Below are positions 28,389 through 61,508 of a DNA stretch of 64,000 nt, one piece after another. A model generated the notes under the pieces. It worked only from the letters and a program-made list of their open reading frames with translations, was not told the origin of the DNA and did no database searches. This stretch comes from Betaproteobacteria bacterium. Lineage in GTDB: Bacteria > Pseudomonadota > Gammaproteobacteria > Burkholderiales > SG8-41. A program made the translations under genes and the position numbers. How positions within the stretch are numbered: the stretch's first letter is position 1; every line of letters begins with the position of its first letter. The stretch covers positions 5,441-69,440 of the forward strand of contig JAQGMI010000152.1 in the NCBI GenBank assembly GCA_028292435.1, given 5' to 3'.

Positions 28389-31300
28389 CTACTGACCTCG
28401 CCAATTCCAGCGCACCCAATAATATTCCTGGACGCGCGTCATCTGTCCTTCGCGTGCAAGTATCGCGGCATACAGCATCGTCTTTGCAAGGTGCGCCCCG
28501 CGTTCGCGCGATGTGAGGTCGAAAGCTATGTTGTTACCGCCGACCGAAATTTCGAAATCGGGCTTGATGTCTCCGACGAGGGAGTCGAGGACTGACCGCG
28601 GGATTGATGACCGCAGCCACCCGTATGCCTGCCCTTCGTTTTGGAACCACTGATCTACAGTTCGCTGCAAAACCGTGGGTGAGAGCATGTTGAATGCCGA
28701 AAGTGTTAATTCCACATGCGGCATCGCTCCGGCGGGAAATCCGGTCGTTCGAAGTACTCGCGCCAATTCAGCGTGCAACATCGTTCCGAGCCCTGCCATG
28801 GTTGATGATCTGCGGCCGCTGGCCTGAAGGTTGGCGAGCGCCTGGCGGATCGCTGTCTGCAGGTCGATCGCCATGGGTGCAGGCAGCGCTTCTTGTGCCA
28901 CCGGCTGGCCGGCGCTCTGCTCCAGCTGAGCGAAGATTGCATCGATGCGCCGCTCAATGCGCTGCTCGCGATTTTGCGCCTGCCATTGCGCTCGCGGAGT
29001 GGCACGAGTGCCAGGCTGCGGCGTTACACCGCCCATGTCAGCGACGCCAAACTGAGTGGCTGGCGCCGCCTCGGTCACCTCGATTTGCACATCGAACGGG
29101 TTGCCGAAATTAGCCTCGACGGGCGCCGCCGCCTGCATCGGAGCATCAGGCGCAAGTGACAAGTCAACTGGACCCGCGAACGGCACATCGACTGCCGAAG
29201 ACACCATCGGACCGCGACCCTCCGAGACAGAGAGCAGCTGCTCGCCGATGGGGCCACTGCTCTGCGGCATCAAGTGCACGGGCTCCGATCCCTCGAGAGT
29301 TCTGGAGATCAGTTGGTTCAGGAGGCTTCGTTGGAGCCAGCCTTTGATGCCCTTCGCGGGACCGTAAGATGATGGGGCGGGAGCGACCGGTTCCGGCGCG
29401 ATCGTGGAGACCTCGGCTTCCCCCGTGGATACCAGCGGCTCCGTTGGAGCTTCGTTGGGTGCCGCCGCCTCGGGTTCGACCGTAGTGGCCTTGGGCACCG
29501 CACGCGGCCGGGGCATTAATTTTATTAGCGCGCTCGAAGGCCCACCCATGATGCCGCCCCACGCCCCCGCTTCAAGCCACGACGCCGGCCCGCCGATCTG
29601 CGCAGCCTGGAAACGACGCTCCGATTCGGACAGCGATAATTGCGCTGCGAGGAAACTCGTCGCATCGGTTGCTGCTGCACCGGCGATGCCCGAGGAGACG
29701 CCGGCAAACGTACCTTCTGTGTATGCAGCAGCCACGGTACCCGACTCGAGGCCTAGCGCGCCCGAGGCTGCCGCGCCGAACTCTCCGAAGAAAGGCATGG
29801 CGACCGCGAAATCCATGATCGCGCCTTTAAGGATATCCGAGGGATGGAAGTCATTTAGGTCGTTATAGGAGATGTGGCCCAAACGATAGGCATGTGCTCG
29901 CGCAGCGCGCATGTCCATCCCGAATCCGCTCGCGAGGTTGCTGGTACCGTGCATCAATTTGTTCGCACCCAGCCCGAGTTTGTTGCCAGCCCATGCAAAG
30001 TATGAAAGCCCGCCCTCATCCCAATCTTCACTGGCAGCTTTTCGGATGTCATCAGCGTTTTCCTCCCATGCTTCACCCGCAGTTTGGTCCGGCATGTTCG
30101 AGCTACGGAAATCGTTCATCGCTTGCATCACGGTGTCGGCCCGACTGGCGAGAGAATGAGCGTCCGAACTCACCTTGGCGATGAGACCGGCCTGGTCTTT
30201 ATTACCGGGCATGAGAACACTCGCCAGGGTGTCTGCAGATTTTGCGAATTTAGGCATCACTTCGTGGGCGAGCGCGTAGATCTCATCTTGCGTGTAATCG
30301 GCCGGGTCCGCTGCGATTGCATTCAAACGCTCGCCGTATTTTTCGAGCAGCCATTCGACCTGAGCATTGAGCAACGCGATTTCCGACAACTGGCGCGCAT
30401 CGTTCAATGCGATGAGCGTCCACAAGTAAGCGCCTCGCATCGAAAGCGGATCGAGAGATGCCAGCGCAAGCGCGCCGTGATCGTCCTGCAAGCGCTTGAA
30501 ATTTACCGTGAACGTCAACTCGCTTTCGATGTCCATCTGCCCGTCCGGGTCGGGTAACTCGACATTGAGCAGCGGATCGCCAAGCGGTTCCAGCATCTGA
30601 CGTGCAGCTTCATTGCGGGCGATCTCAGCGACGTACACCTCAACGTCGGTGTGGCTGCGGGCTGCGTTAAGCATGCCGGGCATCAGCGCGGCGATCAGCT
30701 CTTCGCGCGAAACGTATTCGGTCGTAGGTGCGAGGAATTTCGAAAGCGGGGCTTGCGCGAAAAAAAGACCTTTTTCACCGTCATACGGCACGCCGCGGCG
30801 AAGGTGTTCTCGCCGATAGGCGGCGTCCTGCAGCAACTGAAGGGACTCGCGGTCGAGTGCGACTGCAAGAAATGGATAGTCGGCAAGCGGGTTCTCGGGT
30901 ATCGGCTCGCAGACCGCCGGGTCATCGGCGGAGCACGTCGACTCAAGAGGTTTGCGCTGCAGCCGTTTTCGCCCGGAACGCTGTTGTTGCTGCACGTGAG
31001 CGAGCTCGTGTGCTATCAGCAGCTGCCCACGCGTTGTATCGGGCCGCAATTCATCACGGCCGAAAAAAACTTCGCTGCCCTGCGTAAAGGCGCGCGAGCC
31101 GTGGGCGGCGGCCGCCGTTTCGGCGGCGGGGCCAGCGTGCATGCGCACGTCCTTTAACGATGTCCCTAAGCGAGCTTCCAGGCGTTCTTGCTGTCCTAAA
31201 GGTAGGTCCTTTAATTTAGGCTCCGCATCATTGTTGAAATTTTGAGCGGGCTTGTTGAGCGTCGCGGAAGATGAGACGACGTCCTCCGCAAAGCGATCTG

Positions 31301-31559
31301 CTTCCTGCTCGTGGCTGTCGCCGCGGGAATCGGCACCACGCTTGGTGTTTACTTTTGCTTGGGCACGGAAGTTTGCCGTTTGCGCGATTCGCTGCTCTGC
31401 TTGATTGCCCGCCGCACGTTGCGCATCTCCCGCTGTCCGGTCGCTGCTTTTCGCTCCCGTTCGCCGTAACGTCCTGGACGGCATGTCATGCTCAGGTCTC
31501 GACTTCGGGTGATGGTCAAAATCCGACACGATCAAATCCGCGCGTAACGGTGCTATCAC
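28389..31559 (-). CDS. giant DUF4157-domain protein, putative eCIS cargo/effector 1
   Basis: 1056 aa. AGNQAEQRI...AQAKV...HEQEADRFAEDV leader, then the DUF4157 core LKDVRMHAGPAAETAAAAHGSRAFTQGSEVFFGRDE...LIAHELAHVQQQ (about nt 30975-31208). It is the last gene of the operon. Confidence 0.8.
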   Translation of the reverse strand: MIAPLRADLIVSDFDHHPKSRPEHDMPSRTLRRTGAKSSDRTAGDAQRAAGNQAEQRIAQTANFRAQAKVNTKRGADSRGDSHEQEADRFAEDVVSSSATLNKPAQNFNNDAEPKLKDLPLGQQERLEARLGTSLKDVRMHAGPAAETAAAAHGSRAFTQGSEVFFGRDELRPDTTRGQLLIAHELAHVQQQQRSGRKRLQRKPLESTCSADDPAVCEPIPENPLADYPFLAVALDRESLQLLQDAAYRREHLRRGVPYDGEKGLFFAQAPLSKFLAPTTEYVSREELIAALMPGMLNAARSHTDVEVYVAEIARNEAARQMLEPLGDPLLNVELPDPDGQMDIESELTFTVNFKRLQDDHGALALASLDPLSMRGAYLWTLIALNDARQLSEIALLNAQVEWLLEKYGERLNAIAADPADYTQDEIYALAHEVMPKFAKSADTLASVLMPGNKDQAGLIAKVSSDAHSLASRADTVMQAMNDFRSSNMPDQTAGEAWEENADDIRKAASEDWDEGGLSYFAWAGNKLGLGANKLMHGTSNLASGFGMDMRAARAHAYRLGHISYNDLNDFHPSDILKGAIMDFAVAMPFFGEFGAAASGALGLESGTVAAAYTEGTFAGVSSGIAGAAATDATSFLAAQLSLSESERRFQAAQIGGPASWLEAGAWGGIMGGPSSALIKLMPRPRAVPKATTVEPEAAAPNEAPTEPLVSTGEAEVSTIAPEPVAPAPSSYGPAKGIKGWLQRSLLNQLISRTLEGSEPVHLMPQSSGPIGEQLLSVSEGRGPMVSSAVDVPFAGPVDLSLAPDAPMQAAAPVEANFGNPFDVQIEVTEAAPATQFGVADMGGVTPQPGTRATPRAQWQAQNREQRIERRIDAIFAQLEQSAGQPVAQEALPAPMAIDLQTAIRQALANLQASGRRSSTMAGLGTMLHAELARVLRTTGFPAGAMPHVELTLSAFNMLSPTVLQRTVDQWFQNEGQAYGWLRSSIPRSVLDSLVGDIKPDFEISVGGNNIAFDLTSRERGAHLAKTMLYAAILAREGQMTRVQEYYWVRWNWRGQ

Positions 31560-31607
31560 ATCGACACATGGGCGCTTTCGTCGCCCCTGCGCGACGGGAG
31601 AAATCCT

Positions 31608-61173: not shown

Positions 61174-61200
61174 CGTGTTCCTATCTTCTAATGCAGTACT

Positions 61201-61461
61201 TCAAAGCGAATCCTTTAGCGGATTCATCACCCCGGCATAAAGCGTTTTACCGTCAGGCAAAGTGTGCGCAACCAGCAGCCGCTGCTCGACCATCTCGCTC
61301 AACACCTGGTCAATCAACTGCGGCGCTGCCTTGAAACCGCCTTCGGACAGCCAGCACTCGACGACTCCTTCAGCCGTATCTGCCGCCAGCGGCGAGAGAC
61401 GCAGATGAGCGAGAATTGCCGCCTTCAGCTTCTTTCGCCGGCCGTCATGGTCAGAGTCCAC
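61201..61461 (-). CDS. small unknown protein, first cistron of the eCIS operon
   Basis: 86 aa if started at GTG 61461, which lies 5 nt after AAGGAGG (61467-61473). The ORF-track start at 61476 has no RBS. Confidence 0.5.
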   Translation of the reverse strand: MDSDHDGRRKKLKAAILAHLRLSPLAADTAEGVVECWLSEGGFKAAPQLIDQVLSEMVEQRLLVAHTLPDGKTLYAGVMNPLKDSL

Positions 61462-61508
61462 GAAAGCCTCCTTCACAAAAAAAAGCCGCGAATTGCCTGT
61501 GCACTTCG

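Follow-up and report, generated by a model that had tools for sequence, protein, structure and literature searches.

A complete lineage-II contractile injection system operon with subtype IIb gene content and a sigma-54 regulatory module in a soil betaproteobacterial genome

We analyzed a 64,000-nt stretch of DNA from a Betaproteobacteria bacterium (GenBank assembly GCA_028292435.1, contig JAQGMI010000152.1, positions 5,441 to 69,440; hereafter the window) and found that positions 28389 to 61476 hold a genuine, complete Afp/PVC-type contractile injection system (CIS) operon. We put at about 80% the probability that this region is a complete lineage-II CIS operon, with gene content matching subtype IIb, lying on a probable genomic island of a soil betaproteobacterial metagenome-assembled genome (MAG). 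An open reading frame (ORF) scan and the translations of the window gave 22 co-directional minus-strand genes running from 61476 to 28389, which we number g1 to g22 in that order (Table 1). The products of g3, g12 and g19 are identical to JWN94_4346, JWN94_4337 and JWN94_4330 of a 'Betaproteobacteria bacterium' MAG. A first-pass annotation, made from the letters alone, had proposed an Afp/PVC-type operon with every module of the particle, and hidden Markov model (HMM) searches of the 22 proteins recovered the families. All eight core families of extracellular CIS (eCIS) were matched in the operon products, with the tape measure recognized through transitive homology, and the core backbone defined by Chen et al. 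(2019) is there in full: tubes, sheaths, LysM initiator, spike, gp25, baseplate J, ATPase and cap. The module assignments of that annotation were essentially right, except that g1, g3 and g12 had been left unnamed and that g3, encoded between the cap and the first sheath, is not a sheath. Three features still look new: a conserved sigma-54 module, a giant modular sheath and an accessory protein coupled to the cap, g3.

The case rests in large part on related loci. One scan of a genome collection found a single relative, in a Candidatus Rokubacteria MAG (L001). The other loci comprise soil metagenome contigs (L002 to L004), whose g3 homologue (P0006) is listed under a Burkholderiales MAG, a close relative of the window locus (L005/L007) and a further syntenic locus (L009). 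The synteny of g1, the downstream genes and a neighboring gene for a bacterial enhancer-binding protein (bEBP) holds in L001, L002 to L004, L005/L007 and L009. The Rokubacteria locus has the bEBP and homologues of all of g1 to g16 except g12, at whose site there is a gap of about 900 bp without a tblastn match; its g4 homologue is 48% identical over about 1085 aa. Every operon gene with a detectable counterpart keeps its order and length in loci of different phyla. As no two loci share their flanks, conservation delimits a unit running from the bEBP gene to the genes for DUF4157 proteins, and because g1, g3 and g12 are conserved in related loci, we consider them real genes. A cultured bacterium, Pseudoduganella umbonata (Oxalobacteraceae; GCA_014192225.1, JACHXS010000001.1, 728588 to 750252; L008), shares the 3' half of the operon, with baseplate J, Cis12, three Cis13-type fibre genes, the tape measure, the ATPase and DUF4157 proteins (1871 and 1316 aa); a pentapeptide-repeat gene is also present there.

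Myovirus tails share with the locus genes for sheath, tube, baseplate J, gp25, a gpV-like protein and fibres, and an integrase remnant adjoins it, which would suit an R-type tailocin, killing by membrane depolarization and carrying no protein cargo, or the tail module of a defective prophage. We give this hardly any credence. The Pvc16_N cap, the Afp15-like ATPase, the CIS_tube protein, the CIS_TMP-family tape measure and the two DUF4157 proteins are eCIS markers, and neither the window nor the flanks of five mutually different related loci hold head or lysis genes, be it capsid, portal, terminase, holin or endolysin. Of the integrase only a degraded fragment is left, consisting of the arm domain, frameshifted over two reading frames and devoid of a catalytic domain. 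As for a type VI secretion system (T6SS), the 22 operon products and 19 flanking ORFs scanned include no TssJLM, no two-part TssB/C sheath and no ClpV; set against T6SS subtypes i to iii, each sheath is a single chain of phage type, and the ATPase, with one AAA domain, resembles Cdc48. The earlier view that the locus is neither a prophage nor a T6SS therefore holds: capsid, terminase and lysis genes, and those for T6SS membrane components, are missing from the window and the related loci.

Because the integrase remnant lies beyond the bEBP gene, the locus looks like an old genomic island. The remnant probably marks the island border and suggests that the CIS locus arrived as such an island; no tRNA gene was found in the window. 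The degraded integrase alongside, and a source that is a MAG known from sequence, would also fit a horizontally acquired island that has lost its function and is decaying. We regard decay as very unlikely: all 22 ORFs are intact, tightly packed and translationally coupled, with junctions of −28 to +92 nt and several 4-nt ATGA/GTGA overlaps, the order and length of the genes with a detectable counterpart are conserved across phyla, and the promoter element described below is conserved as well.

We compared the gene content with the subtypes of Chen et al. (2019; PMC6899500). In that classification afp8 is split into gp27 and gp5 ORFs in IIa, IIb and IIc, afp10/PAAR is lacking only in IIb, afp6 occurs only in IIb, afp12 and afp13 are divergent in IIa and IIb, IIb has a single afp11, and afp14 is generally absent from lineage II. 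Like subtype IIb, the locus has split gp27/gp5 ORFs, a single afp11, no PAAR, divergent afp12 and afp13 and the eight core families; a small gene, g8, lies at the afp6 site and has no HMM match. Unlike the subtype as described, it has a detectable CIS_TMP tape measure, and the published description has no sigma-54 activator, giant sheath or g3 protein, all three of which are present here. The composition had been called non-canonical in the first-pass annotation, which overstates the case, as a split spike, a missing PAAR, a small gene at the afp6 position and divergent Afp12/13 are the published IIb signature. At the sequence level, the closest solved homologues, from Streptomyces and haloarchaea, confirm lineage II.

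The g10 product covers positions 72 to 347 of the 547 of the NCBIfam VgrG_rel profile (the N-terminal two thirds), and g11 covers positions 373 to 541 (4.6e-32). Because they match two halves of one profile, we take g10 and g11 together as a split VgrG-like spike. The former had been predicted to be gpD-like; the HMM search gave no Phage_GPD match and YQBQ fell slightly under its cut-off, so that the expected family failed and the spike assignment stands on the VgrG_rel match (1.5e-31). No PAAR_motif was found at E ≤ 0.01 among the 22 products, and the intergenic gaps, of at most 92 nt, are too small for an unannotated PAAR gene. Near the PAAR site of other subtypes lies g12, which has no family match in Pfam, NCBIfam or PHROGs and only eight homologues. 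An AlphaFold2 model of g12 built with these eight homologues (pLDDT 36.6) was discarded as unusable for fold assignment.

At the baseplate, g14 reaches 339 bits with TIGR02243 against a cut-off of 156, gives the only Baseplate_J match among the 22 products and aligns over its full length (1.8e-69) with a Streptomyces 'Baseplate protein J-like domain-containing protein', Cis11 by homology, of PDB 9gtp. The gp25-like g13 probably starts at 49100 (MARDF...), in line with homologues of 129 to 134 aa. The matches of g15 to CIS12_fam and of g16 to g18 to CIS13_fam are all under the equivalog cut-offs, for which reason we call these Cis12 and Cis13 proteins divergent. Three paralogous fibre-like proteins had been predicted, and g16, g17 and g18 indeed have a common N-terminal CIS13_fam domain of 100 to 150 aa (the g17 N-terminus matches g16 at 2e-12 and g18 at 1e-7 in blastp) followed by unrelated C-termini. 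The first of them contains short collagen-like stretches of G-X-Y and ends in a variable C-terminus; L007 shares only the N-terminal 244 aa of this protein. In the second, the middle is rich in Cys and Gly and the C-terminus is a coiled coil; the third matches many PHROG tail-fibre families (best 1e-20).

The tape measure, g19, has no direct Pfam match. Among its 64 homologues, two are over the Pfam CIS_TMP threshold, and the end-to-end alignment with one of the homologues, P0054 (1e-49), bears out the earlier suggestion of a tape-measure-like protein, as do the alignments with the CIS_TMP-passing homologues. Its gene is directly upstream of the ATPase gene, like afp14. The ATPase, g20, comprises an N-terminal winged-helix domain and a classic-clade AAA domain resembling Cdc48/VCP.

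Comparison with the related loci strongly supports sigma-54 control of the operon, as had been proposed from the window, since the bEBP and a −24/−12 element are conserved there. The bEBP consists of an AAA+ sigma-54 interaction domain, in which Walker A was located, and a Fis-type helix-turn-helix (HTH), and is devoid of an N-terminal sensor domain. Homologous sensor-less bEBPs of 314 to 345 aa (the length in L001 being imprecise) adjoin the CIS in L001, L002 to L004, L005 and L009; the gene is divergent in the window and L005 and co-directional in the other loci. Upstream of g1, the sequence AGGCACGGGACTTGCA is the best-scoring GG-N10-GC site of the 64-kb window, and an equivalent −24/−12 element occurs 40 to 80 nt upstream of the g1 homologue in L001, L002 to L004, L005 and L009. 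Five independent lineages, including the Rokubacteria MAG, thus have a bEBP and a −24/−12 promoter directly upstream of the first gene. As sites of that quality have a background of about 0.05 per kb per strand, five such positional coincidences are not due to chance. The window-wide count of the sigma-54 consensus does not exceed chance (2 found against 2.4 expected), and the promoter argument rests for this reason on position and on conservation between loci.

A second, distal sigma-54-like element, CGGCATATAGTTTGCA, points to the operon from farther upstream, within a block conserved with L005, the relative of 74% identity, where it reads CGGCACACACTTTGCA (L005, around 8581). The 590-nt leader, including the roughly 430 nt between the two −24/−12 elements, contains no convincing ORF and no Rfam family. 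A repeat search of the intergenic region returned no convincing palindrome; the inverted repeat GACCCA-ccc-TGGGTC came from the alignment of the window and L005 intergenic regions instead, and is a plausible candidate activator-binding site.

The first gene, g1, follows the regulatory module closely. It had no match in Pfam, NCBIfam or PHROGs, its likely start is a GTG at 61461 after the Shine-Dalgarno sequence GAAGGAGG, and homologues of 40 to 49% identity occupy the same position in L001, L002, L005 and L009. The most distant locus containing g3, L010, encodes at 2125 to 5185 a Response_reg+GerE regulator and a Pvc16_N protein that, at 319 aa, is longer than g2, and is without g1. This shows that g1 co-occurs with the sigma-54 activator and is absent from the GerE-regulated L010, and indicates a regulator swap, GerE against sigma-54, within one CIS lineage. 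As PspA does with PspF, g1 might act in trans to gate the activator. For eCIS, GerE, BTAD and RfaH have been reported as regulators (Geller 2021). Within the searchable literature, we found no paper linking sigma-54 to eCIS, the sigma-54 papers concerning T6SS. VasH-type control of T6SS is similar in that an enhancer-binding protein adjoins the cluster of a contractile machine with a −24/−12 promoter; it differs in that the machine here is of Afp/PVC type and the activator has no N-terminal domain and a GAYTDA loop.

We further investigated the giant sheath. A giant, decorated sheath had been noticed from the sequence, and g4 is indeed a 1049-aa sheath with a β-module insertion of about 650 aa. 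Its sheath parts are residues ~1 to 100 at the N-terminus and ~760 to 1044 at the C-terminus; Phage_sheath_1 and Phage_sheath_1C match residues 776 to 1040 only, and PDB sheaths match it as two stretches (9ezm at 5e-112, 8bky at 3e-97). The insertion holds four to five tandem modules of about 75 aa, with repeats at 116 to 525. The largest CIS sheath chain among the PDB matches to g4 has 692 aa. Searched alone against 1.84 billion representative proteins, the insertion gave 195 matches, about 50 of which are 1000 to 1160 aa long with the same layout; eight of nine sampled were sheaths. As these roughly 50 matches have the layout of g4, the giant sheath is a hallmark of a whole, rare lineage. 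The tandem-module insertion should lie on the outer sheath surface, as a decoration. The second sheath, g6, is paralogous to g4 at both the N-terminus and the C-terminus.

The accessory protein g3 is linked to both cap and sheath. Its gene has a 4-nt overlap with the cap gene g2 in every locus, indicative of translational coupling. It has no match in Pfam, NCBIfam or PHROGs and only 22 homologues among 5.8 billion proteins. Its AlphaFold2 model (pLDDT 87.5) is a string of β domains, and it carries the module of the g4 insertion, detected at 6.7e-9 by an HMM made from the g4 repeats alone and at 5e-7 by blastp. No whole-chain structural relative was found in PDB and BFVD (TM ~0.14 for the whole chain, low-TM matches spanning ~0.12 to 0.18); at the level of domains, low-TM matches are to phage tail, depolymerase, tube-decoration and virion-protein domains, and a profile search of PDB gave a single weak match (0.035), to the decoration domain of a phage tail tube. 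No similarity of g3 to Anabaena Cis16B was found, and no PDB chain of CIS cap complexes was matched by sequence. It is a candidate for a cap partner or a surface decoration.

Comparison of the window with L005/L007 shows which parts diverge. Core proteins are 90 to 99% identical and g3 and g4 74 to 77%; the g16 C-terminus and the C-terminal regions of the cargo proteins are replaced. Seen from these alignments, the divergence of g3, g4, the g16 C-terminus and the cargo C-termini fits exposed or target-facing parts.

The two candidate cargo proteins, g21 and g22, close the operon. The former is laid out as a low-complexity N-terminal region, DUF4157 with an HExxH motif, a long linker and a C-terminal region; the latter is paralogous to it within DUF4157 only. 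Outside DUF4157, sequence searches of PDB, PHROGs and NCBIfam returned nothing for either. DUF4157 is an N-terminal cargo marker associated with long linkers (Geller 2021), and the AlgoCIS preprint reports cargo loading that depends on the N-terminal domain and is mediated by the ATPase Alg15. By hydropathy, g21 stands alone among the 22 operon proteins in having two hydrophobic segments (705 to 731 and 775 to 793), both in its linker, which hints at a membrane-inserting cargo. In a further locus (L006), an apparent fusion ORF (11560 to 14565) of the Afp15-like ATPase and DUF4157, a seeming Rosetta-stone link, was rejected as an assembly frameshift artefact on account of out-of-frame stretches in its translation.

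In the 5' half of the operon, the cap g2 weakly matches Pvc16 of PDB 6j0f (7.6e-4). The inner tube protein g5 is over the cut-off of TIGR02241 and also has CIS5_fam and CIS1_fam matches; the second tube-family protein, g7, is 32% identical to it. Like afp6, the conserved ORF g8 is located after the tube gene and before that of the LysM initiator; it has a likely start at 52867 and 54 to 98% identity in L001, L002 and L005. It had been called DUF5908-like, for which we found no HMM support: searches of Pfam, DUF5908 included, NCBIfam and PHROGs gave no match.

We propose the following mode of action. The sensor-less bEBP would activate RNA polymerase-sigma-54 at the −24/−12 promoter and thereby switch on the whole 22-gene operon. 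A baseplate of g9, g13, g14 and g15 would assemble round the two-piece spike, g10 and g11, which has no PAAR tip and at which g12 may have an accessory role. The tube (g5, g7) would polymerize along the tape measure g19, wrapped by g6 and the giant g4 with its β-module insertion turned outward, and the cap g2 would end the tail, with g3 as cap partner or decoration. By analogy with AlgoCIS, the ATPase g20 may load g21 and g22 into the tube by their N-terminal regions, and the Cis13-anchored fibres g16 to g18 would then bind the target, upon which sheath contraction would drive in spike and cargo. The parts list is read from the genes; the order of assembly, the cargo loading and release outside the cell are modeled on characterized relatives.

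Several points weigh against our interpretation. The bEBP has a GAYTDA loop in place of the canonical GAFTGA (GAFTDA in L001), a variant conserved in its family, and rpoN is not within the 64-kb window. The locus agrees with every testable feature of subtype IIb, a placement that is a gene-content checklist and not a phylogeny, and the subtype itself has been catalogued from sequence only, the searchable literature yielding no characterized member. The operon includes no lysis or release genes, and the closest solved homologues (9gtp, 8bky, 9ezm) act within the cell that makes them or at its membrane.

The last two points bear on where the particle acts. Of the earlier eCIS label, the Afp/PVC-type CIS part stood and the word extracellular turned out to be an assumption, one that homology does not earn because the nearest solved systems have the cytoplasm or the membrane as their site of action. 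The particles might instead stay in the producer, either free and linked to stress-induced cell death, like the Streptomyces CIS, or docked at the inner face of the envelope and firing on contact, like the haloarchaeal T6SS-like CIS or T6SSiv, an alternative that we take seriously and consider unlikely. The nearest solved homologues (9gtp, 1.8e-69; 9ezm, 5e-112; 8bky, 3e-97), from Streptomyces and a haloarchaeal T6SS-like CIS, speak for it, no holin, endolysin or other release gene occurs in the operon or flanks, and tight on/off control by sigma-54 would suit a costly or suicidal program. However, the operon encodes three fibre-like proteins, including one of the S74 phage type, where the Streptomyces CIS is without conventional fibres. 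By hydropathy, no structural protein among the operon products has a transmembrane segment; this includes the Cis13-like proteins, unlike Anabaena Cis13, and no conserved gene of the operon encodes a membrane protein like CisA or Hbor_38620. Receptor-side domains and cargo also diversify between close relatives, as expected for external targets. Going by these sequence features, the three fibres, the missing transmembrane anchor and the diversifying receptor-side domains favor an external target.

Known systems provide further points of comparison. Afp of Serratia entomophila and PVC of Photorhabdus (both Ia) have a like parts list, with tube, several sheath paralogues, LysM initiator, gp25, baseplate J, gpI-like protein, fibre, tape measure, AAA+ ATPase and Pvc16-type cap, as well as cargo genes at the 3' end. 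In contrast to them, the cap gene here comes first and not last and encodes the N-terminal domain only, the spike is split, PAAR is missing, the fibre anchor is of Cis13 type (theirs are adenovirus-like) and the cargo carries DUF4157. Their regulators are of RfaH, LysR or GerE type, whereas a sigma-54 activator is present here. Sequence similarity is low: apart from the weak Pvc16 match, Afp11/Pvc11 are unmatched at E ≤ 1e-3. The Streptomyces coelicolor CIS (IId; 9gtp, 8bky) provides the closest solved baseplate J homologue and is among the closest sheath cores. It is cytoplasmic and mediates cell death; its VgrG is contiguous, it is without a conventional fibre or a typical tape measure and, according to PMC12237407, it needs the membrane protein CisA. 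Its sheath has 534 aa against 1049 aa here, where three fibres, a tape measure and a split spike are also present. The thylakoid-anchored tCIS of Anabaena (7b5h/7b5i) likewise has Cis12- and Cis13-type proteins, the N-terminal domain of Cis13 binding the baseplate, and its two-protein cap Cis16A/B may parallel the coupled g2 and g3; its Cis13 has an anchoring transmembrane helix, whereas g16 to g18 are without any. The eCIS literature already describes the presence of several fibre genes, S74 domains and long DUF4157 cargo.

We also tentatively raise the possibility of a distinct CIS clade in soil Betaproteobacteria, Rokubacteria and relatives, defined by a sigma-54 activator with g1, a β-module sheath coat and g3 co-translated with a truncated cap. 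If so, the sensor-less sigma-54 activator would have replaced an ancestral GerE-type regulator.

CIS are being engineered as programmable protein-delivery devices, with experiments so far in few lineages (Ia, Ib, IId and haloarchaeal); we found no structure or functional study of a IIb-type lineage in the searchable literature. One small activator gene and one sigma-54 promoter constitute a regulatory handle that is probably tightly off or on, and Pseudoduganella umbonata is a possible cultured host for particle induction. The large modular insertion of the sheath may be amenable to engineering or may turn out to be part of a new outer layer; the locus also offers a PAAR-less two-piece spike and two large DUF4157 cargo proteins. 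The regulator swap between GerE and sigma-54 is relevant to the question of what makes soil bacteria fire these machines, and when. Should g3 and the coat of the sheath form a functional outer layer, for adhesion, bundling or protection, this would add a new structural tier to CIS.

Table 1. Features of the CIS locus and its regulatory region (positions in the window; operon genes in order of transcription).
Feature	Position	Strand	Basis or remark
Degraded P4-type integrase remnant	63400..63940	-	Arm-DNA-bind_3 6.6e-17; continuation in another frame
Divergent bEBP, 345 aa	62067..63104	+	Sigma54_activat 2.4e-59, AAA_lid_14, HTH_8
Distal sigma-54-like element CGGCATATAGTTTGCA	61942..61957	-	~480 nt upstream of g1, pointing to operon
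Inverted repeat GACCCA-ccc-TGGGTC	61672..61686	.	~150 nt upstream of proximal promoter; conserved in window/L005 intergenic alignment
Proximal sigma-54-type −24/−12 promoter AGGCACGGGACTTGCA	61510..61525	-	~35-50 nt upstream of g1
g1, small conserved protein, 86-91 aa, first operon gene	61201..61476	-	Conserved position, no family match
g2, tail terminator/cap, Afp16/Pvc16 N-terminal domain only, 208 aa	60547..61173	-	Pvc16_N (DUF4255) 3.3e-38
g3, all-β multidomain accessory protein, 466 aa	59150..60550	-	Conserved; no family match
g4, giant sheath, 1049 aa	55938..59087	-	Phage_sheath_1 and Phage_sheath_1C
g5, inner tube protein (gp19/Hcp-like)	55472..55912	-	Phage_T4_gp19 6.7e-46
g6, second sheath, 670 aa	53417..55429	-	Phage_sheath_1 and Phage_sheath_1C
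g7, second tube-family protein, 177 aa	52884..53417	-	Phage_T4_gp19 5.4e-31
g8, small 65-aa protein at Afp6/Cis6 position	52670..52867	-	Position and conservation
g9, tube initiator, C-terminal LysM, Afp7-like	51971..52666	-	CIS_tube 2.9e-26, LysM 8e-7
g10, gp27/gpD-like hub, N-terminal part of split VgrG-related spike	50723..51967	-	VgrG_rel 1.5e-31
g11, gp5/gpV-like OB domain and β-helical needle, C-terminal spike part	49884..50726	-	Phage_base_V 3.8e-24
g12, conserved 259-aa protein between spike and gp25	49108..49887	-	Conservation, no family match
g13, gp25-like baseplate wedge, 129 aa from the probable start	48711..49100	-	GPW_gp25 2.2e-25
g14, baseplate J/gp6-like (Afp11/Cis11), single copy	46656..48677	-	Baseplate_J 2.2e-20
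g15, Cis12/gpI-like baseplate protein, NHL-like N-terminal region	44380..46659	-	CIS12_fam 6.9e-41, TIGR02242 over cut-off, Tail_P2_I
g16, fibre-like 1, Cis13-type N-terminal baseplate anchor	42839..44350	-	CIS13_fam 2e-25, residues 21-177
g17, fibre-like 2, Cis13-type N-terminus	41022..42746	-	CIS13_fam 1.1e-11
g18, tail fibre, Cis13-type N-terminus and C-terminal S74 intramolecular chaperone	38728..41022	-	Peptidase_S74 1.2e-12, CIS13_fam 1.1e-6
g19, tape measure, CIS_TMP family via transitive homology	37150..38712	-	Homologues and position
g20, Afp15-like AAA+ ATPase	34994..37177	-	AAA 2.4e-27, WHD 4.9e-16
g21, cargo/toxin candidate, 1129 aa	31608..34997	-	eCIS_core (DUF4157) 1.2e-30, HELAH at 287
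g22, second cargo/toxin candidate, 1056 aa	28389..31559	-	eCIS_core 7.4e-25, HELAH at 184

Downstream of the operon, the flank (1 to 28 kb) consists of metabolic ORFs, including several TctC receptors, a hydantoinase, acyl-CoA enzymes and an HtrA-like protease. A kind of expansion typical of Burkholderiales, which agrees with the betaproteobacterial assignment, is seen within positions 1 to 28000, where at least five genes for TctC-family (Bug) solute receptors lie amid hydantoinase, acyl-CoA and CoA-ligase genes.

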